Positions 9,084 through 52,980 of a stretch of 64,000 nucleotides of DNA are shown piece by piece (the first letter of the stretch is position 1; each line of letters starts with the position of its first letter). The position numbers were made by a program, and so were the translations under genes. The notes under the pieces were generated by a model, which did not search any database, had not been told where the DNA came from, and saw only the letters and a program-made list of their open reading frames with translations. The stretch is from Candidatus Poriferisocius sp. Lineage in GTDB: Bacteria; Actinomycetota; Acidimicrobiia; Acidimicrobiales; Bin134. The DNA lies in the NCBI RefSeq assembly GCF_965202595.1, contig NZ_OZ241836.1, positions 535,095 to 599,094 on the forward strand, read 5' to 3'.

Positions 9084-9239
9084 ATGAACAAGCCGTTGAA
9101 CAAACCATCCAACGTTGTGAGCGAGCCGTTGAGCAAGCCATCCAACAGCAAACCATCCAACGTTGTGAGCGAGCCATCCAACAGCAAACCATCCAACGTT
9201 GTGAGCGAGCCATCCAACAGCAAACCATCCAACGTTGTG
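9084..9239. repeat. 36-bp tandem repeat, about 4 copies (one 48-bp variant)
   Basis: caaaccatccaacgttgtgagcgag recurs at 9101, 9149, 9185 and 9221 (periods 48, 36, 36). It lies in the divergent intergenic region between the MFS-LivF gene and the PNPOx-like gene. Confidence 0.9.
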
Positions 9240-9332
9240 GTTGTACTGTTGGACTCGTTGAACCGGCACATGTTGGGAAGCTACGGGGGTACCGAGTTCG
9301 AGACCCCGAACCTGGGGGTGGGTGATGGCTGA
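9084..9332 (+). pseudogene. possible 5' remnant of a sulfatase / alkaline-phosphatase-superfamily gene
   Basis: The plus-frame ORF ends ...KPSNVVVVLLDSLNRHMLGSYGGTEFETPNLGVGDG*. The segment VVVLLDSLNRHMLG.YG....TPNL resembles sulfatase N-termini, but the ORF stops after about 80 aa, where the next gene begins. Confidence 0.3.
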
Positions 9333-22966: not shown

Positions 22967-23228
22967 CAACGGTATCGCCCTCGGGGATTGATTGGCAGGT
23001 GAGGATCCACCCCTCGTCCAGGTCATCGGGGGTCAGAGCGTTGTTGGCCCGCATCGTGACGTGACCCCGATGGAGCAGGGCCATACAGGTGGCGCAGTTG
23101 CCCGCCTCGCAGGAGAACGGGGGGCTGAGTCCGGCCCGCCGGGCGGCTTCGAGCACCGTGTCGCCCGCGACATAGTCCAAGGTGTGGTGCCGACCCTCAA
23201 ACACGATGGTCAGGGTTGCGTTCTTCAT
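22947..23228 (-). CDS. 2Fe-2S ferredoxin (plant/adrenodoxin-like fold)
   Basis: 93 aa with CEAGNCATC...LTCQS cysteine pattern. Confidence 0.85.
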   Translation of the reverse strand: MKNATLTIVFEGRHHTLDYVAGDTVLEAARRAGLSPPFSCEAGNCATCMALLHRGHVTMRANNALTPDDLDEGWILTCQSIPEGDTVVEYENY

Positions 23229-23322
23229 CTTCGGCGATCAGGGGATTGCGTTCTTGGTTTTCGGTGATCAGGGGGTTGGGTTCTTGGTTTTCGGCGATCA
23301 GGAAGGCGATCAGGGGATTGCG
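23221..23322 (-). repeat. 30-bp tandem repeat, about 3.3 copies, between the CoA-transferase stop and the ferredoxin start
   Basis: ttcttcatcttcggcgatcaggggattgcg / ttcttggttttcggtgatcagggggttggg / ttcttggttttcggcgatcaggaagg / cgatcaggggattgcgccc. Each unit combines the ferredoxin start region with the CoA-transferase end (..AIP*). The ATG is retained only in the copy next to the ferredoxin. Confidence 0.85.
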
Positions 23323-28875: not shown

Positions 28876-30243
28876 GTGAGGAGCACCGTGGAAAGCCTGG
28901 AGGGCAACCGGGTAAAGGTGTCGGTGGACATCGACTGCGATGAGTTCGAGAAGAAGCTGGACCAGGCCTTCCGCAAGCTGGCCCACGAGGTTCGCCTGCC
29001 CGGATTCCGTCCCGGCAAAGCCCCCCGGCGGGTGCTGGAGGCTCGGATAGGTCCCCAGGCGGCCCGGGGGGAGGCCCTCAATGATGCGGTCCCCGAGTAC
29101 TACACCCGGGCCATCAATGATCACGATGTGGACGCGATCGCTCCGCCGGAGATCGACATCACCAGCGGGGCTGAGGACGGCCCGGTCAGCTTTGACGCGG
29201 TGGTGGAGATCCGCCCCTCTGTCACCGTCACCGGCTACGACCGGCTCAAGGTGGAGGTGCCCAGTCCCGAGCCCACCGAGGAGGAGATCAGCCGCCAGAT
29301 CGACCAGCTTCGCAAGCAGTTCGGCGAGTTGGCCTCGGTGGCCCGGCCCGTGCTTGACGGTGACAACGTGACCATGGACATTTACGGGTCGTACAACGGG
29401 GAGCAGGTCGAGGGTCTCACCGTGGACGACTACTCCTACGAGGTGAACCAGGAGTCATTGATTCCCGAGATCGACGAGCATCTCCGGGGATCCAAGGTCG
29501 GGGACATCCTGGAGTTCAACGCCCGCCACCCCGACCCCGCCGAGGACGGGCTGCTGAGGTTCCGCGTTCTCGTCAAGGAGGTGCAGGAGACTGTCCTGCC
29601 CGATCTGGACGACGAGTTTGTTCGGGAGGCCTCCGAGTTCGACACCGTTGACGAGTTGCAGGCCGACACGTCGGAGAGCATCGCCCGATCCAAACGGGCC
29701 AACACCTTGGAGTCTCTGATGCATCAGGTGGCGGAACAACTTGCCGGGCTGGTGACAGACGATGTTCCCGAGGCGTTGGTGGACACCGAGGTGCTGCGCC
29801 GCCTCCGAACCTTCCAGTTGCGCCTGGACAGCCAGGGGGTTGAGGTGGAGACCTACCTGGAGGCCATCGGCCAGACCACCGAAGAGCTGGTGGAGGCATT
29901 GCGGGGACCGGCCCTCATGGAGGTGAAGAGCGACCTGGCTCTGCGGGCGGTGGCTGCGGCTGAGGCAATCCAGGTTTCCGCCGAGGACATCGAATTGGAG
30001 ATGGCCCTGCTGGCCGCCCAGGTGGGCCTGACCGTCGATGAAATCAAGTCGTCGGTTCTGGGCGGCGACGAGAATCGCCTCAAGGGGGTGCGATTGGATG
30101 CTCTGATGCGCAAGACCCGGGGATGGGTCCTGGAGAGGGTCGAGATCACCGATGACGACGGAAACCCCCTGGAGTGGTCTAGCCTGAACCCAGACGACAA
30201 CTTCGAGCTTCCCCCGACTCTGAGTGAGAATCAAACCCCATGA
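28876..30243 (+). CDS. tig: trigger factor
   Basis: N-terminal ribosome-binding signature GFRPGKAP, then a PPIase-like middle and a C-terminal arm. GTG start at 28876. Confidence 0.9.
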   Translation: MRSTVESLEGNRVKVSVDIDCDEFEKKLDQAFRKLAHEVRLPGFRPGKAPRRVLEARIGPQAARGEALNDAVPEYYTRAINDHDVDAIAPPEIDITSGAEDGPVSFDAVVEIRPSVTVTGYDRLKVEVPSPEPTEEEISRQIDQLRKQFGELASVARPVLDGDNVTMDIYGSYNGEQVEGLTVDDYSYEVNQESLIPEIDEHLRGSKVGDILEFNARHPDPAEDGLLRFRVLVKEVQETVLPDLDDEFVREASEFDTVDELQADTSESIARSKRANTLESLMHQVAEQLAGLVTDDVPEALVDTEVLRRLRTFQLRLDSQGVEVETYLEAIGQTTEELVEALRGPALMEVKSDLALRAVAAAEAIQVSAEDIELEMALLAAQVGLTVDEIKSSVLGGDENRLKGVRLDALMRKTRGWVLERVEITDDDGNPLEWSSLNPDDNFELPPTLSENQTP

Positions 30244-30423
30244 ACCCCCAGAACTGCTTCGAGCTTCCCCCGACTCTGAGTGAGAATCAAACCCCATGAA
30301 CCCCCAGAACTGCTTCGAGCTTCCCCCGACTCTGAGTGAGAATCAAACCCCATGAACCCCCAGAACTGCTTCGAGCTTCCCCCGACTCTGAGTGAGAATC
30401 AAACCCCATGAACCCCCAGAACT
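30201..30423 (+). repeat. 56-bp tandem repeat x4 spanning the tig stop and clpP start
   Basis: The unit cttcgagcttcccccgactctgagtgagaatcaaaccccatgaacccccagaactg starts at 30201, 30257, 30313 and 30369. The copies read as identical. ATGA occurs at 30240, 30296, 30352 and 30408. The first TGA ends tig and the last ATG starts clpP. The three between delimit 19-codon ORFs, [19 protein letters not shown]. Confidence 0.95.
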
Positions 30424-32296: not shown

Positions 32297-32326
<30 letters not shown>

Positions 32327-32452
32327 TCGCTCGATGCCCACGGATTACCCCATGTCTTCGGACCGGTCCCGGCGCGAGGCGAGCTGATCGCTCGATGCCC
32401 ACGGATTACCCCATGTCTTCGGACCGGTCCCGGCGCGAGGCGAGCTGATCGC
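32297..32452 (+). repeat. 61-bp tandem repeat, about 2.6 copies, starting in the last codons of clpX
   Basis: ggaccggtcccggcgcgaggcgagctgatcgctcgatgcccacggattaccccatgtcttc starts at 32299, 32360 and 32421. Each added copy holds an 11-codon [14 protein letters not shown] (ATG 32352 and 32413), ending with the clpX C-terminal residues. Confidence 0.95.
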
Positions 32453-34243: not shown

Positions 34244-34331
34244 GGCCTTGCCGGGGGCGGGGGCTCGCCCGATTGCCGGGCAACTGCCGGGCCGGTGTGC
34301 GATTTCGGGTGAATCATTCTAACATTGCTTC

Positions 34332-35375
34332 ATGGTGAAGCGGCGGTTCTATTCCGGCAGTGGCCTGGTGGGTCGTGATATCGCCATCGACTTGGGTACC
34401 GCCAACACGCTGGTGTACGTCCGTGGCGAGGGTGTCCTTATCAACGAGCCCTCGGTGGTGGCGGTCACCAGCGAGGGTACGCCTCTGGCCGTGGGGGCCG
34501 AGGCCAAGCGGATGCTGGGTCGCACACCGGCCCATATCCAGGCCATCCGACCGCTCAAGGACGGGGTGATCGCCAACTTCGACATCTGCGAGAAGATGCT
34601 GCGGTACTTCATCCAGCGAGTGTCCCCCGGGCGATTCACCCGGCCCCGTATGGTGATCTGCGTTCCCTCCGGTATCACTCCCGTGGAGCAGCGGGCCGTT
34701 CAGGAGGCCGCGATTTCTGCTGGGGCCAAAAAGCCGGTGTACATAATCGAGGAGCCCATGGCCGCGGCCATCGGTGCCGGCCTGCCGGTGCAGGAGGCTT
34801 CGGGCAGCATGATCGTGGATATAGGCGGCGGCACCACCGAGGTGGCCATGATCTCGCTCGGCGGGGTGGTCACCGGCCAGTCGATCCGCATGGGCGGCGA
34901 TCGGATGGACGAGGACATCATCTCCTTTTTGAAGAAGGAGCACAGCCTCATCATCGGGAGCCGCACCGCGGAGGAAGTGAAGATTGTGCTGGGGTCGGCG
35001 TGGAGGGGCAGCGAGAACGAATACGCCGAGGTCCGGGGTCAGGACATGGTCACCGGCTTGCCCAAGACCGTGGTTACCTCCACCTCCGAAATTCGCGAGG
35101 CCATCTCCGAGGTGGTGCGGTCGATCGTGGACGCGGTCAAGGTGACCCTCGACGAAACCCCTCCCGAGCTGGCTGCCGACATCATGGAGGTGGGCATCGT
35201 GCTGGCGGGGGGTGGGGCACTGCTGAACGGTTTGCCCTCTCGGATCCAGGAAGAAACGGGGATGCCGGTCCGATTGACGGACGACCCCCTCCACGCCGTG
35301 GCCATCGGCTCCGGTCAGTCGCTGGAGGAGTTCGACGCGCTGGAGGGACTCCTCTTCTCGGCGTCGTACGACTGA
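34332..35375 (+). CDS. mreB: rod shape-determining protein MreB
   Basis: DIAIDLGTANTLVY, actin-fold phosphate motifs, VDIGGGTTEVA. Confidence 0.95.
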   Translation: MVKRRFYSGSGLVGRDIAIDLGTANTLVYVRGEGVLINEPSVVAVTSEGTPLAVGAEAKRMLGRTPAHIQAIRPLKDGVIANFDICEKMLRYFIQRVSPGRFTRPRMVICVPSGITPVEQRAVQEAAISAGAKKPVYIIEEPMAAAIGAGLPVQEASGSMIVDIGGGTTEVAMISLGGVVTGQSIRMGGDRMDEDIISFLKKEHSLIIGSRTAEEVKIVLGSAWRGSENEYAEVRGQDMVTGLPKTVVTSTSEIREAISEVVRSIVDAVKVTLDETPPELAADIMEVGIVLAGGGALLNGLPSRIQEETGMPVRLTDDPLHAVAIGSGQSLEEFDALEGLLFSASYD

Positions 35376-35387
35376 CCGTTCGGTTGG

Positions 35388-36245
35388 TTGGGCCCCGTGC
35401 CAGCGGGCACCCGCACCGGACGGTCGCGAGCAACGCTTGTCTTCCTGCTGCTCAGCTCAGTGACCCTTCTCACTCTGGATGCCCGTGGCTTCGAGCCCCT
35501 CCAGCGAACGGAAGAAACGCTGATGGATCTGATGTCACCATTTCGTTCAGCGGCGAACCGGCTGTTCAATCCGGTGGGCGATGCCTGGAAAGGCATGACC
35601 GGTTATGCCGAGCTGGAATCCGAGAATGTGATGCTGCGGGACGAACTCCAAAAACTCGAGGCTCAGCGCATTCTCGATTCCGATGCGGCCGTTCGCCTGG
35701 AATCGCTGCTCAAGGAACTGGATCTGCCCTATGTGCAGGCCATTCCCAACACCGTGGCGGAGGTGGTTACCGCCAATGTGGGCAACTTCGACCGGTACTC
35801 GGTGCAGATCAACCGGGGGTCCGAGGACGGGATCCGTAACGGGATGCCGGTCGTCACCAGGGGCGGGTTGATCGGGCGGATCGATGGTGACCCCGGGCGG
35901 CGGCATTCCCGGGTGACGCTTCTCACCGATCCCGAGTTCGAGGTGGGGGTGCTGGTGGTGGGAACCGACGACGTGGGATTGGCCTCGGGGGGTGGACATG
36001 GGAATGCGCTGAGGGTTGACAAGGGCTTGGAGGTCGATACCGAGGTAGCCGTTGGGGATGAGGTTGTCACCAGCGGTGTGGATCGCAGCCGTTACCCCCC
36101 CGGCATACCCATAGGCACGGTTACCAGGATCGAATTCGACGAGGCCCGCCTGCTCCAGGTTCTCATCGTGGAGCCCTCGGCCGATACCGATAACTTGAGC
36201 TTCGTGACCGTGCTGCTCTACGACCCCCTGGGCGAGGGCCCATGA
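35388..36245 (+). CDS. mreC: rod shape-determining protein MreC
   Basis: Position after mreB. N-terminal TM helix, coiled coil (ELESENVMLRDELQKLEAQ), beta-rich C-terminal domains. Confidence 0.85.
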   Translation: MGPVPAGTRTGRSRATLVFLLLSSVTLLTLDARGFEPLQRTEETLMDLMSPFRSAANRLFNPVGDAWKGMTGYAELESENVMLRDELQKLEAQRILDSDAAVRLESLLKELDLPYVQAIPNTVAEVVTANVGNFDRYSVQINRGSEDGIRNGMPVVTRGGLIGRIDGDPGRRHSRVTLLTDPEFEVGVLVVGTDDVGLASGGGHGNALRVDKGLEVDTEVAVGDEVVTSGVDRSRYPPGIPIGTVTRIEFDEARLLQVLIVEPSADTDNLSFVTVLLYDPLGEGP

Positions 36246-36349
36246 GTTCAAAGGGCAGTGGGCGAGGGCCTGTGAGTCCAAAGGGCAGGATGAGCTTGCG
36301 ACCCCCTGGGCGAGGGCCCGTGAGTCCAAAGGGCAGGATGAGGCGGTGA
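36221..36349 (+). repeat. nested 30/48-bp repeats filling the mreC-mreD junction
   Basis: tgggcgagggcc[c/t][a/g]tgagt[t/c]caaagggcag at 36229, 36259 and 36307. cgaccccc precedes copies 1 and 3. A 35-codon ORF runs from ATG 36242 (ATGA with the mreC stop) to TGA 36347-36349 (GTGA with the mreD start). Confidence 0.9.
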
Positions 36350-36852
36350 ACACGGCGAGTGGCTATGTCCGCAGCGCCCTGTTTCTTTTCACCGTGCTGG
36401 TGCTTCATCTGACGTTGTTCTCCGATCTGCGGGTATTCGGGGTTGCGCCCGAGGTGCCGCTGGCCGTGGCGGTCACCGCCGGTTTGGTGGGGGGACCGCA
36501 GCGGGGGGCAACCGCCGGGTTCGTGATCGGCTTGGGCATGGATCTTTACCTGCCCACGCTGTTCGGTCTTTCCGCTCTCATCTACACCGTGTGGGGCTAC
36601 GCGGTGGGTTTGCTGGAAGAGCGGATCATCCGCAGCGCCTGGTGGATAAACGTCCTGGTTGCTGCGGTGGCCACCGCGGGAGGGCTGCTGGTGTACGCGG
36701 TGCTGGGTGAGCTGCTGGGCGAGGCCAACCTCTATACCGAGCACCTCTACGTGGTCATGGGGGTGGCCGCGGCCTACAACCTGGTGTTGAGCCTGCCCCT
36801 TTTGGGTATGTGGCGCTGGTCGTGGGTTCGACTGTTGGCGGAGGAGTCGTGA
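36346..36852 (+). CDS. mreD: rod shape-determining protein MreD
   Basis: 168-aa polytopic membrane protein located between mreC and mrdA. Confidence 0.8.
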   Translation: MNTASGYVRSALFLFTVLVLHLTLFSDLRVFGVAPEVPLAVAVTAGLVGGPQRGATAGFVIGLGMDLYLPTLFGLSALIYTVWGYAVGLLEERIIRSAWWINVLVAAVATAGGLLVYAVLGELLGEANLYTEHLYVVMGVAAAYNLVLSLPLLGMWRWSWVRLLAEES

Positions 36853-36893
36853 GCCCGGAGTCATTGCGGTTGGCGGAGGAGTCGTGAGCCCGG
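36835..36893 (+). repeat. 25-bp direct repeat x2 (period 35) at the mreD/mrdA junction
   Basis: ttggcggaggagtcgtgagcccgga at 36835-36859 and 36870-36894. GTGA occurs at 36849 and 36884. Between them lies a 12-codon ORF, VSPESLRLAEES* (36849-36887). Confidence 0.9.
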
Positions 36894-38968
36894 AATCGCT
36901 GCGTCTGCGGTTGAGTTTTCTGGGCCTTTTGGCGTTGCTGGCCTTCGGAGCGTTGGTGGCCCGCCTGTGGTTCCTTCAGGTCATGAGCTCGGAGGAGTTC
37001 GAGGTTCAGGCCACGCAGAACACCATTCGGTTGGTCTACGAGCCGGCCCCCCGGGGGCGCATCTTCGACCGCAAAGGCAACGTGCTGGTTGACAACGGGG
37101 AGTCCCTGGTGGTGACCGTGGATCGGGTGATCTTCGACACCAAGTTCGATACCGACGAGCAGGAGGCTCTGGTTCTGCGGCTGGCCAAGGAGATCAGCCG
37201 AACCGGCCGCCTGACCAAGGTTTTTGAGATCAACAGGGCGTTGGAGGATCCCCGGTACGGTCCCCTGGACTCGGTGCCGGTCGCCGACGATGTGACCGAG
37301 CACTTCGAGATAGTGCTGGCTGAGCGGTCCGATGAGTTCCCGGGTGTGGATACGGAGATCCGCAGTGTTCGTACCTATCCCTACGGCGATCTGGCTGCCC
37401 ATGTTCTGGGCTATGTCTCTCTCATCAGCGAGGAGCAGTACGAACAGGTGGCTGACAATCCCAAGTCCTACCGCCGAAACGATGAAATTGGGCAGACCGG
37501 GGTGGAGGCATCATTTGAGCCACTGCTCAGGGGTACGCCCGGCTATACCAGGATGGAGGTGGACAATCTCGGTGATCCGATCCGGATCATTGAGAAAATC
37601 GACCCGGTAGCCGGTGCGGATGTGCATCTCACCCTTGACATCGACATCCAGGGAATGGCCGAGAAGGAGCTTCTGGCCGCTTTGGCCGCGGCTCGCCAGC
37701 GGGCGGGGACCGAGGAGGGGGATCTGCCCTTCAACGCTCCTGCCGGTGCCATGGTGGTAATGGACCCCAATGGGGCAGAAATCCTGGCGATGGCGTCGTT
37801 TCCCACTTACGAGCCCGGCGAGTTCGTCAAGGGGTTTTCCGACGAGCGATGGGCGGAGCTTCAGGATCCCAACAACCATCAACCCCTGAACAACCGGGCT
37901 CTCTCCGGCATCTACTCACCGGGATCCACGTTCAAGTTGTTCACAGCCTATGCCGCGATGAACAGCGGGGTGCTCGGTCCTCGTGGGGTTCTGGGCCCCT
38001 ACACCCTCTATGAGGACACCGGTAGCTTCGTCGTGCCTTCCTGCGATGAGGAGTTGATCGCCTCGTGCACCTTCAACAATGCCGAAGGAGCCGTATACGG
38101 GCCCGTTGACCTGGCTCGGGCCATCACGGTGTCCTCCGATGTGTACTTCTACTACCTGGCCGACACCATGGACCGGACCGACCGTTTTGATCGCGAGAGC
38201 ATCCAGCGTACCGCTCGACTCTTCGGGTTCGGGGCTCAAGCCGGTATAGCCCTGGGTGGTGAGGGGGCCGGCAGGGTGCCCTCACCGTCGGAGGCGGAGG
38301 CCGCGGGGGAGCCGTGGCGAACCGGTGATTCCATTGTGCTGGCCATCGGGCAGGGCGTGCTGGGGGTCACCCCCATCCAGTTGGCCAACGGCTATGCCGC
38401 TTTCGCCAACGGGGGCACGCTCTACGCCCCCAAGGTGGTGGATCGGGTTGAGAATCCGGTCACCGGGGAGGTGTTGCAGTCCTTTGCCGACCGGGTGCTC
38501 AACCGCATATACATGCCCAGTTCCATCCGGCAACCGATCCTTCAAGGGTTGCTGGGCGTCACCAGCGATTTGGATGGCACCGCCTACTTCGCCTTTGAAG
38601 GGTTTCCCCATGAGGATTGGTCGGTGGCCGGCAAGACCGGCACCGCGGAGGTGGTGGGCAAGGCCGATTATTCGCTTTTCGCCGCCTTCGGTCCCAATCC
38701 CAATCCGGAGTACGTCGCGGTGGCGGTGATGGAGGAGGCGGGCTTCGGTGCCCATGTCGCCGCCCCCGCGGTGCGCCGCCTGCTGGAGCCCATCGCCACC
38801 GGCACGGTGCAGGCAGTCCGTACTATCGACGACCTCGCCGACCTGGGCCAATCGATGGATACCGGCGGGGATGGGGAAGGCGGGGACGGGACCGGTGGGG
38901 ATGGGGAAGGCGAGGACGGATCCGGCGGGGACGGAGAAGGCGGGGACGGGACCGGGGGTAGCTCCTGA
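36884..38968 (+). CDS. mrdA: penicillin-binding protein 2 (elongasome transpeptidase)
   Basis: N-terminal TM helix and dimerisation domain. Transpeptidase motifs STFK, SSD(V) and KTGTA. Gly/Asp/Glu-rich repeat tail. Confidence 0.9.
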   Translation: MSPESLRLRLSFLGLLALLAFGALVARLWFLQVMSSEEFEVQATQNTIRLVYEPAPRGRIFDRKGNVLVDNGESLVVTVDRVIFDTKFDTDEQEALVLRLAKEISRTGRLTKVFEINRALEDPRYGPLDSVPVADDVTEHFEIVLAERSDEFPGVDTEIRSVRTYPYGDLAAHVLGYVSLISEEQYEQVADNPKSYRRNDEIGQTGVEASFEPLLRGTPGYTRMEVDNLGDPIRIIEKIDPVAGADVHLTLDIDIQGMAEKELLAALAAARQRAGTEEGDLPFNAPAGAMVVMDPNGAEILAMASFPTYEPGEFVKGFSDERWAELQDPNNHQPLNNRALSGIYSPGSTFKLFTAYAAMNSGVLGPRGVLGPYTLYEDTGSFVVPSCDEELIASCTFNNAEGAVYGPVDLARAITVSSDVYFYYLADTMDRTDRFDRESIQRTARLFGFGAQAGIALGGEGAGRVPSPSEAEAAGEPWRTGDSIVLAIGQGVLGVTPIQLANGYAAFANGGTLYAPKVVDRVENPVTGEVLQSFADRVLNRIYMPSSIRQPILQGLLGVTSDLDGTAYFAFEGFPHEDWSVAGKTGTAEVVGKADYSLFAAFGPNPNPEYVAVAVMEEAGFGAHVAAPAVRRLLEPIATGTVQAVRTIDDLADLGQSMDTGGDGEGGDGTGGDGEGEDGSGGDGEGGDGTGGSS
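38861..38958 (+). repeat. 30-bp in-frame tandem repeat x3.3 in the mrdA 3' end
   Basis: accggcggggatggggaaggcggggacggg and variants, encoding TGGDGEGGDG x3 directly before the stop. Confidence 0.9.
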
Positions 38969-40122
38969 TGTCGGTGATCTCCATGGAGGATCGCCGATCT
39001 CGGGATCCGAACACCCGGGACAGCCAGTACGCGCCCTGGTTGCACATCGATCTGCTGCTGATTCTGGCCGTGGCCGGCTTGACGGCAATCGGCATTGTGG
39101 CCATTTACAGCACCACTCGGGGCCGGGATCCCGAGAACTTCGATACTTTCTTTCTGGATCGGCAGTTGCTCTTCGGGGTGGCCGGAGCGTTGCTCATGAT
39201 CTTTGTGGCCTGGATGCCCTACCACGAGCTGTCCAAGTTCGCCGTGGCCATCTACGGCGTGGGCATTCTGGCTCTCATAGTGGTGCTGGGACCGCTGGGC
39301 CAGGAGGTTAACGGTGCCCGGTCGTGGTTCCGGGTCGGCGACGTACAGCTCCAGCCGTCGGAGTTCCAGAAAATCGTGGTGATCGTGGCGATGGCCGCCT
39401 TTTTGTCCCGCTTCGAGGACCACATGGACGTGACCAGGGTGTTTTTGGCCGTGGGCATGGTTGCGTGGCCGGGCCTTCTGGTCCTGCTCCAGCCGGATGT
39501 GGGTACGGCGCTGATTTACGTGTTCATCGGATTCGCCATGCTCCTGATCGGCGGGATTCGCTTGCGCCAGGTGATCGGAATCGCCTTGATCGCCACCACG
39601 GTTGTAACCCTCATGATCAACTCCAACATGTTGGAGGAGTACCAGACCAACCGGCTCCGGACGTTTGTGGATCCCTCCAGCGACATCACCGAGGCGGCTT
39701 TCCAGCAGCGCCAGGCCCAGATAGCCATCGGCAACGGCGGGGTGAGCGGCACCGGCTACGGCGAGGGTTCCCAGACCCTGAGCGGCTTGGTGCCCCAGCA
39801 GCACACCGACTTCATCTTCACGGTGATCGGTGAGGAGTTCGGCTTCATAGGGGCGGCCGCCACCCTGGCGCTTTACGCCATCCTTCTGTTGCGGATCCTC
39901 CAGGCCGCTCGCTTGGCCCGGGACCGGTTGGGCACGCTGATCTGCTCGGGGGTTTTCGCCATGATCCTGTTCCAGATGTTCGAGGCGGTGGGCATGACCC
40001 TGGGCATTACCCCCATCACCGGTATCCCCCTGCCCCTGGTTTCCTACGGCGGTTCCTCGGCCATCGCCACCCTCATCGGCATCGGCCTGGTCATCAACGT
40101 GCGGATGCGCCGGTTCGTCTGA
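38968..40122 (+). CDS. rodA: peptidoglycan glycosyltransferase RodA (FtsW/RodA/SpoVE family)
   Basis: ATG overlaps the mrdA stop (TGATG). SEDS motifs QPSEFQKI and QQHTDFIF. About 10 TM helices. Confidence 0.9.
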   Translation: MSVISMEDRRSRDPNTRDSQYAPWLHIDLLLILAVAGLTAIGIVAIYSTTRGRDPENFDTFFLDRQLLFGVAGALLMIFVAWMPYHELSKFAVAIYGVGILALIVVLGPLGQEVNGARSWFRVGDVQLQPSEFQKIVVIVAMAAFLSRFEDHMDVTRVFLAVGMVAWPGLLVLLQPDVGTALIYVFIGFAMLLIGGIRLRQVIGIALIATTVVTLMINSNMLEEYQTNRLRTFVDPSSDITEAAFQQRQAQIAIGNGGVSGTGYGEGSQTLSGLVPQQHTDFIFTVIGEEFGFIGAAATLALYAILLLRILQAARLARDRLGTLICSGVFAMILFQMFEAVGMTLGITPITGIPLPLVSYGGSSAIATLIGIGLVINVRMRRFV

Positions 40123-40180
40123 TCCGCTCTGAGGGGTTTGGTCTGCGCCGGTTCGTCTGATCCGCTCGGAGGGATTTGAT
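40106..40180 (+). repeat. about 36-bp direct repeat x2 (period 38) duplicating the rodA 3' end
   Basis: tgcgccggttcgtctgatccgctc at 40106-40129 and 40144-40167, with similar tails (gaggggtttg / gagggatttg). Each copy contains RRFV*. Confidence 0.9.
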
Positions 40181-40216
40181 CTGAGAACCCGGTCCGGGGG
40201 CGGTACATTTAGGTAG

Positions 40217-42865: not shown

Positions 42866-44695
42866 ATGACCGACTCCACGGAGCGGACTGGCAAAAAGTC
42901 AGCCAGCAACGCGCCACAGGCTAAGCCACAGGCTAAGCCACAGGCTAAGCCACAGGCTAAGCCACAGGCTAGTCCCAGGATTGGGGATTCCCGGCCGGCA
43001 CCGTCTGGGGATCGTCCCAGGATTGGGGATTCCCGCCCGGCACCGGTGCCGTCTGGTGGTCGTCCCAGGATTGGGGATTCCCGGCCGGCACCCGCGGGCA
43101 ACGGATCCGGTGCGGGTGGGGCTCCGGGTTCGGGGGCCAAAGACTCCGGTGCGGGTGGGGCTCCGGGTTCGGGGGCCAAAGACTCCGGTGCGGGTGGGGC
43201 TCCGGGTTCGGGGGCCAAAGACTCCGGTGAGGGTGGGGCTCCGGGTTCGGGGGCCAAAGACTCCGGTGAGGGCCGTGGGCGTCGGCGTCGTCGGGGCGGC
43301 CGAGGTCGCGGTGGCGGCCGTCCCGTTCAGCCGGTGGAGCACCAGGTGTCCGACGGCCCGGTGGAGCTGGATGAGAAAACCTTGCAGCGGAGGCGGGGTC
43401 GGCGCCGCAAGGGCCGGCCGGTGGGTCGGTACATGATGCTCGTGCAGGTTCGTCCCGAGGCCACCCAGATTGCCGTCGTCGAGGGTCGAGCGCTGATTGA
43501 GCACTACGTTTCCCGGCCCGCGGACGATGTGAACGAGATCCACGGCAACATCTATCTGGGCCGGGTGCAAAACGTGCTGCCCGGTATGGAGGCTGCCTTC
43601 GTGGACATAGGCACCCCCAAAAATGCAGTGCTGTACCGGGGGGACCTGGTGTTCGACCCCGATGAGGTGGAAACCACCAATGGGGCTCCTCGCATCGAGA
43701 ACCTGCTGGAGGCCCGCCAGACCGTCCTGTGCCAAGTCACCAAGAACCCCATAGCCCACAAGGGGGCCCGGTTGACCCAGGAGGTGTCGCTCCCCGGCCG
43801 GTTCGTGGTGCTGGTTCCCAATTCCAAGACCTATGGCATCTCCAAGCGGCTTCCCGACCGGGAGCGCAAGCGGCTCCGCCGGGTGCTGGACCGCTGCAAG
43901 CCGGACGCACACGGGCTGATCGTCCGAACCGTGGCCGAGAACATCACCGCTGAGGAGCTGGAACGAGACGTGGGGCGGTTGGTTTCCCAGTGGGAGCGAA
44001 TCGATGATCTGGCCAAGCGGGTGCGGGTTCCGGGGCTGCTCTACCGGGAGCCGGAGATGGCGGTTCGGGTCATCCGTGAGGAGTTCAACCAGGATTTCCG
44101 CTCGGTTCATATCGACGATCCCCGGCTCTTCGAGGAGGTGAACGACTACGTGTCCAGCGTGGCCCCGGAGCTGGTCGAGAGGCTTCACTACTACGATGCG
44201 AGCAGTGAGCGCCTAGATCTTTTGGAGCGCTACCACGTGCATGAGCAACTGGTCAGGGCTTTGGACAAGAAGGTGTGGTTGCCGGGCGGCGGGTCACTGA
44301 TCATCGAGAACACGGAGGCGCTCACGGTTATCGACGTGAACACCGGTAAGAACGTCGGCAGCTCCAATCTGGAGGAGACCGTGTTTCGCAACAACCTGGA
44401 GGCGGCCCGGGAGATTCCCCGCCAGCTCCGGCTGCGCGACATAGGGGGGATCATCGTGATCGATTTCGTGGACATGGACAAGCGGGTGAACCGCGAAGAG
44501 GTCATGAAGGTGTTCCGGGAGTCGCTGGCTTGGGACAAGACCCGCACGCAGGTACTGGACATCTCCGATCTGGGCCTGGTGGAGATGACCCGCAAGCGCA
44601 TAGGCGAGGGTCTGCTGGAATCGTGCTCATCCACCTGCCCGACCTGCAATGGCCGGGGCCTGGAGCTGGACCGCCAACTGGTATCGAGTAGCTGA
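42866..44695 (+). CDS. rne: ribonuclease E/G family protein with a repeat-rich N-terminal extension
   Basis: S1 domain (IYLGRVQNVLPGMEAAFVDIG), DNase-I-like/5' sensor region, IDFVDM, C-terminal CPTCNGRG zinc link. The first about 150 aa are tandem repeats plus an RRRRGGRGRGGGR tract. Confidence 0.9.
   Translation: MTDSTERTGKKSASNAPQAKPQAKPQAKPQAKPQASPRIGDSRPAPSGDRPRIGDSRPAPVPSGGRPRIGDSRPAPAGNGSGAGGAPGSGAKDSGAGGAPGSGAKDSGAGGAPGSGAKDSGEGGAPGSGAKDSGEGRGRRRRRGGRGRGGGRPVQPVEHQVSDGPVELDEKTLQRRRGRRRKGRPVGRYMMLVQVRPEATQIAVVEGRALIEHYVSRPADDVNEIHGNIYLGRVQNVLPGMEAAFVDIGTPKNAVLYRGDLVFDPDEVETTNGAPRIENLLEARQTVLCQVTKNPIAHKGARLTQEVSLPGRFVVLVPNSKTYGISKRLPDRERKRLRRVLDRCKPDAHGLIVRTVAENITAEELERDVGRLVSQWERIDDLAKRVRVPGLLYREPEMAVRVIREEFNQDFRSVHIDDPRLFEEVNDYVSSVAPELVERLHYYDASSERLDLLERYHVHEQLVRALDKKVWLPGGGSLIIENTEALTVIDVNTGKNVGSSNLEETVFRNNLEAAREIPRQLRLRDIGGIIVIDFVDMDKRVNREEVMKVFRESLAWDKTRTQVLDISDLGLVEMTRKRIGEGLLESCSSTCPTCNGRGLELDRQLVSSS
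42914..43264 (+). repeat. three consecutive in-frame repeat arrays in the rne 5' region
   Basis: 12 bp (ccacaggctaag, QAKP) about x4.9 at 42914-42972. 42/48 bp (cccaggattggggattcccgNccggcacc...) x3 at 42972-43092. 39 bp (ggtgcgggtggggctccgggttcgggggccaaagactcc) x4 starting at 43109, 43148, 43187 and 43226. Confidence 0.9.
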
Positions 44696-51862: not shown

Positions 51863-51891
51863 CACCACCACGATTTCGGGGCCAGATCGGG

Positions 51892-51991
51892 CCGACCCTA
51901 GCCTTGTTTCCATGAGCGGTTGTTTTGTTGCCGACCCCGGTTTGTTTCCATGAGCGGTTGTTTTGTTGCCGACCCTAGCCTGTGCCCATGA
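51892..51991 (+). repeat. 38/39-bp tandem repeat x2.6 ending on the MoxR start codon
   Basis: ccgaccc(tag/cgg)..tgtttccatgagcggttgttttgttg. ATGA occurs at 51912, 51950 and 51988. Two 13-codon ORFs (MSGCFVADPGLFP, MSGCFVADPSLCP) are chained by ATGA to the MoxR ATG. Confidence 0.9.
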
Positions 51992-52887
51992 GCTTCTCGT
52001 TCGCTGACGTTGCCGCCGTGCGCAAGGGTTTGAGCGATGCTCAGTATCTGGCCGACGACGGCATCGCCGGGGTGGTGTATCTGGCCGAGCGCCTGGAGAA
52101 GCCGGTGCTGGTGGAGGGTCCGGCCGGCACCGGCAAGACCCAGCTTGCCAAGAGCGTGGCCGAGGCCACCGACGCCCGGCTCATCCGCCTCCAGTGCTAC
52201 GAGGGGCTGGACGAGTCCAAGGCGCTTTACGAGTGGAACTACAAGAAGCAGCTCCTGCGTATCCAGGCCGAGCGCCAGAGCGACGACATGTGGGAGCAGA
52301 TCGAGGACGATCTGTTCTCCGAGGACTTCCTGCTCACCCGACCCCTTCTGGAGGCCATACGATCCCCGGACCCGGTGGTGCTGCTGATCGACGAGGTGGA
52401 CCGGGTGGAGATCGAGACCGAGGCATTGCTGCTGGAGATCCTGTCCGATTACCAGGTGTCCATTCCCGAGCTGGGCACGGTGTCGGCCCGCCGGATCCCG
52501 CTGGTGTTCCTCACCTCCAACAACACCCGGGAACTTTCCGAGGCGCTCAAGCGGCGGTGCTTGTTTCTGCACATCGACTATCCCGACCTGGAGCGGGAGA
52601 AGGAGATCGTGCTGGCCAAGGTGCCCGGTGTGGGGGAGAGCCTGGCCGATCAGGTGGCTCGCATCGTCCGGTCGGTCCGCCAGATCGAGCTGAAGAAGGC
52701 CCCCTCGGTATCGGAAACCCTGGACTGGGCCCGCACCCTGGTACTGCTGGGGGTGGAGCACGTGGATGCCGAAACCGCGGCCGAGACGGTGAACATCCTG
52801 CTGAAGTACCGCAGCGACATCGACAAGGCGCTCAAGGAGTTCGCGTCCTCCGACGAGAGCTTCGCCCCGCCGACCGCAACCCCGTGA
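51988..52887 (+). CDS. MoxR-family AAA+ ATPase
   Basis: Walker A GPAGTGKT, Walker B VLLIDEVDR, about 300 aa. Paired with a downstream VWA protein. Confidence 0.9.
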   Translation: MSFSFADVAAVRKGLSDAQYLADDGIAGVVYLAERLEKPVLVEGPAGTGKTQLAKSVAEATDARLIRLQCYEGLDESKALYEWNYKKQLLRIQAERQSDDMWEQIEDDLFSEDFLLTRPLLEAIRSPDPVVLLIDEVDRVEIETEALLLEILSDYQVSIPELGTVSARRIPLVFLTSNNTRELSEALKRRCLFLHIDYPDLEREKEIVLAKVPGVGESLADQVARIVRSVRQIELKKAPSVSETLDWARTLVLLGVEHVDAETAAETVNILLKYRSDIDKALKEFASSDESFAPPTATP

Positions 52888-52921
52888 TCCGAATCTCCGG
52901 AAATCCAGATCATTCAATGCA

Positions 52922-52980
52922 GCCATGAGAGTCGAGCCCCGTGATGGTGGCCTGCTGACCGGGCCATGAGAGTCGAACCC
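52922..52980 (+). repeat. 18-bp duplication (period 41) of the VWA-gene start
   Basis: gccatgagagtcga[g/a]ccc at 52922 and 52963. ATG 52925 opens a 14-codon ORF, MRVEPRDGGLLTGP*, whose TGA overlaps ATG 52966. Confidence 0.9.

Follow-up and report, generated by a model that had tools for sequence, protein, structure and literature searches.

In bacterial operons a stop and a start codon overlapping as NTGA (an overlap of -4) are the commonest architecture of translational coupling (review PMC12548453), and both at such sites and at the -1 overlaps of the TGATG type coupling proceeds by termination and reinitiation (PMC12548453, as it reports Huber et al. 2019, 2023). A short open reading frame (ORF) can deliver the ribosome to a coupled gene, as is the case for short upstream ORFs and in the synthetic bicistronic design, both treated in the same review. 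A natural system with related features is the mycobacterial interspersed repetitive unit (MIRU; Supply et al. 1997, as summarised in PMC12548453 and PMC3184786), a unit of 40–100 nucleotides (nt) located between co-oriented operon genes, with an ORF that overlaps its neighbours by 4 nt at its start as well as at its stop codon, so that translation may pass from one to the next. According to these summaries, the insertion affects expression little, and the units form one dispersed family of ca. 40–50 copies, thought to be mobile and to insert at start codons. Here a comparable arrangement is described in the cell-shape operon mreB–mreC–mreD–pbp2–rodA (all genes on the + strand) of a sponge-associated Acidimicrobiia bacterium of the Candidatus Poriferisocius group. 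The window, i.e., the whole stretch of DNA that was analysed, comprises 64 kb of contig NZ_OZ241836.1, and the element in question is a 35-codon ORF bridging mreC and mreD. It is no special regulator, being one case of a recurrent, locally generated class; such relay mini-ORFs are likely by-products of the duplication of gene junctions, which would survive only if ribosomes are relayed to the downstream start.

The ORF opens with ATG 36242, which forms ATGA (36242–36245) with the mreC stop codon TGA 36243–36245, and closes with TGA 36347–36349, overlapping the mreD start codon GTG 36346 as GTGA 36346–36349. An original prediction made from the sequence alone had placed both ends at exactly these coordinates and had the frame run for 35 codons without a stop, across three copies of a repeat, which is indeed the case. 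The product would be MSSKGSGRGPVSPKGRMSLRPPGRGPVSPKGRMRR, rich in R, G, S, and P, with 10 of its 35 residues basic. The repeats share a 29-nt motif, GGGCGAGGGCCNGTGAGTCCAAAGGGCAG, which occurs at 36230, 36260, and 36308 (with 2, 0, and 0 mismatches, respectively), has no further copy in the 64-kb window (0 expected in 100 shuffles), and is absent from the 36 fetched loci of relatives. The copies are spaced by 30 and 48 nt, both in frame, and the distance from ATG 36242 to GTG 36346 is 104 nt, that is 3n+2, so the predicted repeat periods and coupling phase hold as well. The first copy takes in the last seven codons of mreC (DPLGEGP) with the stop; the mreC tail copied inside the mini-ORF is read in a different frame, as RPPGRGP. 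The end of the third copy, AAAGGGCAGGATGAGGCG, is a weak Shine–Dalgarno (SD)-like sequence preceding mreD.

The array is real DNA, since in four public runs, belonging to three studies, contigs extend over positions 35900–37100 without any difference or gap; repeat numbers nearby are identical to those of the window in an independent low-coverage assembly as well. Perfect repeats elsewhere in the window do interrupt short-read contigs, which could speak for an assembly or sequencing artefact in this repeat-rich region, yet with the junction read through in this way the probability of such an artefact is practically negligible. In five public assemblies of this organism the repeats show no variation in copy number. 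By our own arithmetic a lone 104-nt insert would be both in phase and stop-free with a chance of ca. 13% (1/3 for the phase and ca. 0.40 for 34 open codons at a G+C content of 0.64); it is the comparison with relatives, not the lone insert, that lifts the relay frame above chance.

For this comparison, 35 related loci were obtained by a search with MreC, all from metagenome-assembled genomes of Acidimicrobiia, many of them named Candidatus Poriferisocius, and the junctions were followed in a set of 36 related genomes. In each, the stop codon of mreC was located together with the homologous start of mreD, and overlapping starts were then traced from this stop. In 34 of the 36 genomes mreC is connected to mreD by stop/start overlaps of -4 or -1 that follow one another without a break: 10 have a direct overlap of the two genes (ATGA, in one case TGATG), and 24 have one or two mini-ORFs of 5–35 codons in between, each beginning on the preceding stop and closing on the following start. 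The chain is broken only in the two most distant genomes (ca. 70% nucleotide identity), where an ordinary spacer is found. The insert lengths are 14, 47, 62, 65, 97 (65 + 32, two links), and 104 nt, all preserving the chain. The comparison of this junction in relatives had been proposed along with the prediction, and its outcome supports the putative in-phase bridge.

The inserts are copies of flanking gene ends, with breakpoints that vary among clades. The insert of 47 nt, translated as MTTAGAYVRSGL, repeats the MreD head; that of 65 nt closes with ..LYDSLGRQA, copied from the MreC tail; and that of 62 nt begins with MNTAN..RS. In a neighbour-joining (NJ) tree built from 4.2 kb of flanking genes the inserts fall in separate clades, and two genomes nested in insert-bearing clades, L004 and L031, are precisely back to the plain overlap. 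In this the mreC–mreD inserts behave as a minisatellite arising by local duplication and not as an inserted element. The nearest relative, L001, with 86% identity to the window over the flanking genes, has two serial links of 23 and 10 codons (VSPGRGSGARFVGSQRAHRREGS and VSPGRGSGTQ, respectively), and its base unit is collinear with that of the window: mreC tail, NTGA, G(T/C)CC...GG..GGA.., mreD start. In the window the base unit corresponds to the last 9 codons of the mini-ORF, from GTG 36320 to TGA 36349; its 17-nt core, GTCCAAAGGGCAGGATG, was not traced to the flanking genes. The head of this unit (36320–36335), GTGAGTCCAAAGGGC (GTGAGCCCCGGGCGC in L001), resembles the pbp2 head (36884–36899), GTGAGCCCGGAATCG, and G-rich stretches precede the two heads, GAGGGCCC in one and GGAGGAGTC in the other; the likeness could be fortuitous, or the base unit could have an ectopic origin.

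What is kept in these inserts is not the amino acid sequence of the mini-ORF. In the clade with the 65-nt insert (eight genomes), 47 of the 60 interior sites are variable, evenly over the codon positions (15/17/15), and the mean identity is 0.67, while both NTGA overlaps, the length, and the open frame are kept in 8/8 genomes; no stop is present in frame 0, and the other two frames are stopped in 6/8 and 3/8 genomes. A complete ORF with a start and a stop in a cell-shape operon, more than a quarter of whose residues are basic, might be taken for a functional small protein, e.g., a partner of MreC and MreD in the elongasome. This is highly improbable, given that the nearest relative has two different mini-ORFs at this place, that the peptides of other clades are unrelated or there is no mini-ORF at all, and that substitutions show no codon-position preference. 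In addition, the G+C content by codon position is 0.54/0.74/0.66 in the 36242–36349 ORF as against ca. 0.67/0.47/0.80 in the real genes here, its peptide has no Pfam match, and it is not called as a gene in any public protein collection searched. The peptide has the repetitive sequence originally given for it, but as it is not conserved, its repetitiveness has no evident meaning.

A G+C-rich repeated sequence between two operon genes might also act as RNA, as a structured attenuator, a stabiliser resembling repetitive extragenic palindromic (REP) elements, or a small RNA target, the ORF being incidental. Relatives carry unrelated sequences at this position, though, and in the window the fold of 36205–36375 is no better than that of shuffled sequences (z = 0.14; 117 of 200 shuffles as good), a search of 35300–37300 against Rfam gave no match at E ≤ 1, and no significant inverted repeats were found within the array. 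An RNA structure was rejected on the fold and the Rfam result, and an RNA element of any of these kinds is barely credible.

By its sequence, the same relay device is encountered in the window at three further junctions (Table 1). Between mreD and pbp2, a 12-codon mini-ORF combines a copy of the pbp2 head with a copy of the mreD tail (VSPESLRL+AEES). The mreD to pbp2 chain is intact in 35/36 genomes, four of which have mini-ORFs, with 62-nt inserts in three relatives, and the -1 overlap of pbp2 and rodA (TGATG or TAATG) is present in 36/36. At the tig/clpP junction (30201–30423) a 56-nt unit is found in four perfect copies, and each link consists of the first five clpP codons followed by the last 13 tig codons. 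Among relatives, compared here by a protein search and four contig look-ups, three have a plain ATGA, and a single link, diverged in sequence, is present in the L001 genome; a metagenome scan with trigger factor yielded only one distant match. The third junction lies between genes coding for an AAA ATPase and a VWA/CoxE-like protein, and the second of its two links is a copy of the downstream gene's head (ATGAGAGTCGA). Upstream of the same AAA ATPase gene two more short ORFs are chained by ATGA onto its ATG 51988; an aldehyde-dehydrogenase-like gene ends ca. 50 nt before them, so this chain begins in a spacer. At the folC–ndk junction the window has the short form with an 11-nt spacer; in most relatives (most of L002–L031) a 38-nt duplication puts a 13-codon ORF on the ndk GTGA, and L001 (2268–2419) has four perfect copies of the 38-nt unit.

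Table 1. Positions of the relay mini-ORFs, the associated repeats, and the neighbouring genes in the window
Feature	Position	Strand	Remarks
Relay mini-ORF, 35 codons + stop	36242..36349	+	ATGA with mreC stop, GTGA with mreD start
Repeat copy 1	36221..36258	+	mreC tail, ATGA, then GTTCAAAGGGCAG; tandem-repeat family D1
Repeat copy 2	36251..36298	+	core 36260–36288, then GATGAGCTTG; in-frame GTGA at 36272
Repeat copy 3	36299..36345	+	mreC-tail copy, GTGA at 36320, then AAAGGGCAGGATGAGGCG
Tandem duplication, 35 nt, 2 copies, 91% identical	36834..36903	+	spans mreD stop and pbp2 start; family D2
Second relay mini-ORF, 12 codons (VSPESLRLAEES)	36849..36887	+	GTGA at both ends
Three identical 19-codon relay ORFs	30240–30299, 30296–30355, 30352–30411		before clpP ATG 30408
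Two 14-codon relay ORFs, 41-nt links	52884–52969		between AAA ATPase gene (51988–52887) and VWA/CoxE-like gene (start 52966)
38-nt unit, 2.7 copies	51891–51993		two 13-codon upstream ORFs, 51912–51953 and 51950–51991
mreC	35397..36245	+	Pfam MreC, E 4.9e-35, 120.9 bits against cut-off 28; 282-aa MreC calls in relatives; junction alignment
mreD	36346..36852	+	GTG start, 168 aa; Pfam MreD, 24.8 bits against cut-off 24; N-terminal homology
pbp2 (penicillin-binding protein 2)	36884..38968	+	GTG start; Pfam PBP_dimer and Transpeptidase
rodA, after the pbp2/rodA TGATG (-1) overlap	38966..40122	+	Pfam FTSW_RODA_SPOVE

Across its five relay junctions the window has mutually unrelated units, each being derived from its own flanking genes. 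This bears on the possibility that a mobile MIRU-like element was inserted at an NTGA junction, to which short units between genes, ORF ends overlapping the neighbours, and tetranucleotide repeats on both sides would point. A mobile family is contradicted because the units are of local origin, containing the mreC tail, the tig tail with the clpP head (30201–30423), or the pbp2 head with the mreD tail (36834–36903), and because the motif has no other copies in the window or the fetched loci; nor is there a consensus common to the units at different junctions. Such an element is therefore very unlikely.

The link lengths follow a phase rule. Every link is of the form 3n+2 (14, 29/32, 35, 41, 47, 56, 62, and 65 nt), as holds by definition for a link between two -4 overlaps; the non-trivial part is that all junction inserts, measured from the homologous stop to the homologous start, are sums of such links. 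The classical 77- and 53-bp MIRU units are also 3n+2. Counted by clade and breakpoint, there were 8–12 independent events: 14, 29/32, 47, 62, 62, 65, and the second 65 of L001 at mreC–mreD, 35, 62, and 62 at mreD–pbp2, 56 at tig–clpP, and 41 at the AAA–VWA pair. For 12 events and a uniform null of 1/3 the probability that all are in phase is ca. 2e-6. This null was rejected as too generous, microhomology raising the 3n+2 share to ca. 0.47, and with the latter value per event and 8 events the probability is ca. 2e-3. No 3n or 3n+1 inserts were found at the gene–gene junctions, the 3n class, although expected, occurring solely as lengthening of a mini-ORF (the 48 and 30 nt of the window). Repeats within genes are all 3n, and the periods of tandem repeats lacking a start codon are mixed (16, 17, 30, 36, 38, 53, and 61). 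Two of the latter are a perfect 61-nt repeat (2.5 copies, 3n+1) at 32298–32452, which served as a control and is made of the clpX tail and the following sequence with no gene start, and a 53-nt unit in 4.9 copies at L038 1267–1520 (the L001 genome), covering the plsX tail (TAG stop) before acpP with no relay chain.

The phase constraint makes sense only if ribosomes use the copied start codon. Since relay frames arise repeatedly and stay in phase, ribosomes are probably handed from gene to gene, the peptide itself being junk. The main rival is an untranslated scar, i.e., neutral repeats with mreD translated from its own SD sequence and the in-phase frame an accident of duplication geometry. 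It has in its favour that an NTGA junction duplicated by 3n+2 gives an open frame from the outset, no selection being needed, and that the peptide is not conserved, and it can draw on the SD-like stretch before mreD, the microhomology bias, and the chain between ndk and mreB discussed below. It accounts for a frame that is open from the outset but leaves the lack of out-of-phase inserts unexplained: an unused copied start would impose no phase constraint, yet all 8–12 junction inserts preserve the chain, and old inserts such as those of the 65-nt clade have kept overlaps, length, and open frame despite their divergence. We consider the scar unlikely.

The initiation signals give a mixed picture. 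Duplex energies with a generic anti-SD sequence (background mean -4.4, 10th percentile -8.7 kcal/mol) are -7.4 kcal/mol for ATG 36242 and -9.5 kcal/mol for pbp2 and its mini-ORF, and the duplicated unit carries its own weak initiation signal along. The coupled starts of clpP, coxE, and ndk have no SD match, which fits a possible dependence on hand-over; genes without an SD signal must rely on hand-over or another route. A search for RNA runs found one host-labelled run with a single short contig on clpP and none on the mre operon, which is uninformative. Between ndk and mreB the spacer varies from 41 to 129 nt among genomes, with 36-nt repeats of a block containing CCGGTGTGCGATTT (34244–34331 in the window). 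A conserved block GGTGTGCGATTT...TCTAACCTTGC, in which TCTAACCTTGC lies ca. 5 nt before the mreB ATG, directly precedes this start without an SD match and for that reason suggests a promoter, possibly duplicated, for a leaderless mreB message. The spacer was considered as a clean negative control and proved only partly usable, a comparable chain being intact in half of the genomes.

Several observations weigh against a relay of ribosomes. Translation of the 36242–36349 frame is a prediction from its sequence, and mreD has a moderate SD-like stretch (-8.6 kcal/mol, 11th percentile), so that it could be initiated independently too. An ORF from the ndk GTGA to the TGA of ATGGTGA is intact in 18/36 genomes (broken in the window) despite the probable promoter, and thus chains can persist by inertia. 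At plain junctions, pairs of positions on either side that share microhomology (4–6 nt) are 3n+2 apart in 46–49%, 3n in 38–48%, and 3n+1 in 3–16% of cases, because same-phase codon positions resemble each other, and the phase bias may therefore be partly mutational. The number of independent events depends on an NJ tree and on parsimony. Finally, a column-shuffle test of stop-free frames is marginal for the 65-nt clade (0.066) and gives 0.19 and 0.49 for two younger groups of inserts, and it is given no weight here.

The relay would have arisen as follows. The simple state, a direct ATGA overlap of the mreC stop with the mreD start, is retained in 10 relatives. The lineage to which the window and its nearest relative belong acquired a short unit between the two genes, which in the window was ca. 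29 nt and 9 codons long (GTG AGT CCA AAG GGC AGG ATG AGG CGG TGA). The unit with the mreC tail would then have been copied twice in frame, 48 nt and afterwards 30 nt, an order that fits the repeat layout, and the mini-ORF would have grown from 9 to 25 to 35 codons. A ribosome ending mreC would restart at the overlapping ATG 36242, or a fresh one would start there by means of an upstream GAGGG copy; 35 codons of meaningless peptide would be translated, with termination at TGA 36347–36349 and restart at the mreD GTG. The hand-over would be repeated from mreD through the 12-codon ORF to pbp2 and, by TGATG, to rodA. Selection would keep the phase and not the product: a junction duplication would survive only if the frame from the copied start closes exactly on the true start (3n+2) or if it lengthens an existing mini-ORF in frame.

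The original prediction depended on the mreD start, and it is GTG 36346, and not an alternative one, that is backed by N-terminal alignment (MNTASGYVRSALFLF... with MNTANAYLRSALFLL... of relatives) and by database calls, the exact 168-aa product being the form called in NCBI, ENA, and UniRef; from these alignments and calls the start is regarded as secure. The mreC ORF opens with TTG 35388, a codon without a counterpart in relatives, and the MreC start set there by gene callers corresponds to GTG 35397 of the window. The genes tig, clpP, clpX, folC, and ndk stand upstream of the operon. The mreB–mreC spacer of the window has an additional GGTT. The C-terminal tail of PBP2 (38861–38955) is low-complexity, acidic, and glycine-rich, with in-frame 30-nt repeats (GGDGEGGDGTGG...), and its length is different in every relative. 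Two long antisense ORFs (35547–36353 and 36163–36864, minus strand) have no Pfam match and were treated as shadows of the G+C-rich genome.

Further repeats are found in the window and its relatives. At 40106–40183 the rodA tail occurs as a duplication of 38-nt period, which is also seen in L009, L017, and L018 (8577–8661), of a different clade and with unrelated sequence. Periods of 35–38 and 62–65 nt recur at many junctions. At 23216–23302 (minus strand) a 30-nt repeat between two genes copies the upstream tail and the downstream head, the extra copies having lost the ATG (AAAACC in place of AGATGA). At 9084–9332 a 36-nt unit (3.1 copies, 98% identical, a GTGA in each) extends in frame the N-terminus of an 82-aa ORF that has no Pfam match; the remainder, VVVLLDSLNRHMLGSYGG, resembles a sulfatase N-terminus, and the ORF may be a gene remnant. 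Dense in-frame repeats (12 nt in 4.9, 48 nt in 2.7, and 39 nt in 4.3 copies) lie at 42913–43314, near the start of ORF 42866–44695.

Whether bacterial genes depend on a handed-over ribosome is still argued, the models being reinitiation and RNA unfolding. Here stop/start overlaps have repeatedly been pulled apart by duplication, and only arrangements restoring a series of overlaps were found, which offers evolutionary, not reporter, evidence that hand-over matters for the elongasome genes mreC, mreD, pbp2, and rodA. Dependence of the downstream genes on upstream translation is suggested by this evolutionary phase constraint. Arrays with 0, 1, 2, or 3 links offer natural constructs for measuring the efficiency of serial reinitiation. 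By itself the relay frame is of moderate interest; its greater value is that of a natural experiment in how genes are coupled in translation. Annotation pipelines miss such frames, as the absence of the 35-codon ORF from public protein sets illustrates. More tentatively, and as a possibility rather than an expectation, junction duplication might be an ongoing, genome-wide process in Candidatus Poriferisocius, giving arrays of relay ORFs variable in copy number, such as the three identical links between tig and clpP; the phase rule would then read out obligatory termination–reinitiation for many operon genes of this lineage, several of them without an SD sequence, and the arrays could act as heritable rheostats, with fewer of the ribosomes arriving at the downstream gene (MreD, PBP2, or ClpP) for every link added.

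The literature searched, in which MIRU were covered by two reviews, yielded no earlier account of relay ORFs arising locally and repeatedly, nor of the phase rule. Compared with translational coupling as described, the relay junctions likewise consist of co-oriented ORFs with hand-over sites that are exactly NTGA or TGATG and, at mreC/mreD, an ancestral plain ATGA; they differ in the one to three non-conserved ORFs interposed, and the hand-over would therefore take place two to four times in series. With the bicistronic design the relay ORF shares the sole role of a short ORF ending on the start of an expressed gene, but it is natural, duplication-born, and located between two genes instead of in a 5' leader, the exception being the 38-nt repeat at 51891–51993 with its short ORFs in front of a gene. 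Bacterial minisatellites (variable number of tandem repeats) have similar head-to-tail units of 30–65 nt and a copy number differing between related genomes (0, 1, or 3 at tig–clpP), whereas the relay arrays are invariant in the sampled population and their period is constrained by the reading phase. Like MIRU, the relay units lie between co-oriented operon genes, and their ORF ends overlap the neighbours (36242–36245 and 36346–36349). MIRU occur in tandem copies that vary in number between genomes; for the relay units a variable number is seen between species (0–2 links at mreC–mreD and 0/1/3 at tig–clpP), and the five assemblies of this organism agree. Unlike MIRU, they are built from two local gene ends and unrelated across junctions, with no dispersed family in the window and the 36 loci; the host is an uncultured Acidimicrobiia sponge symbiont, not a Mycobacterium, and the inserts are local tandem duplications, not products of transposition. 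A MIRU-like architecture can arise without a mobile element, and the relay ORFs are a locally generated version of a known type of element.

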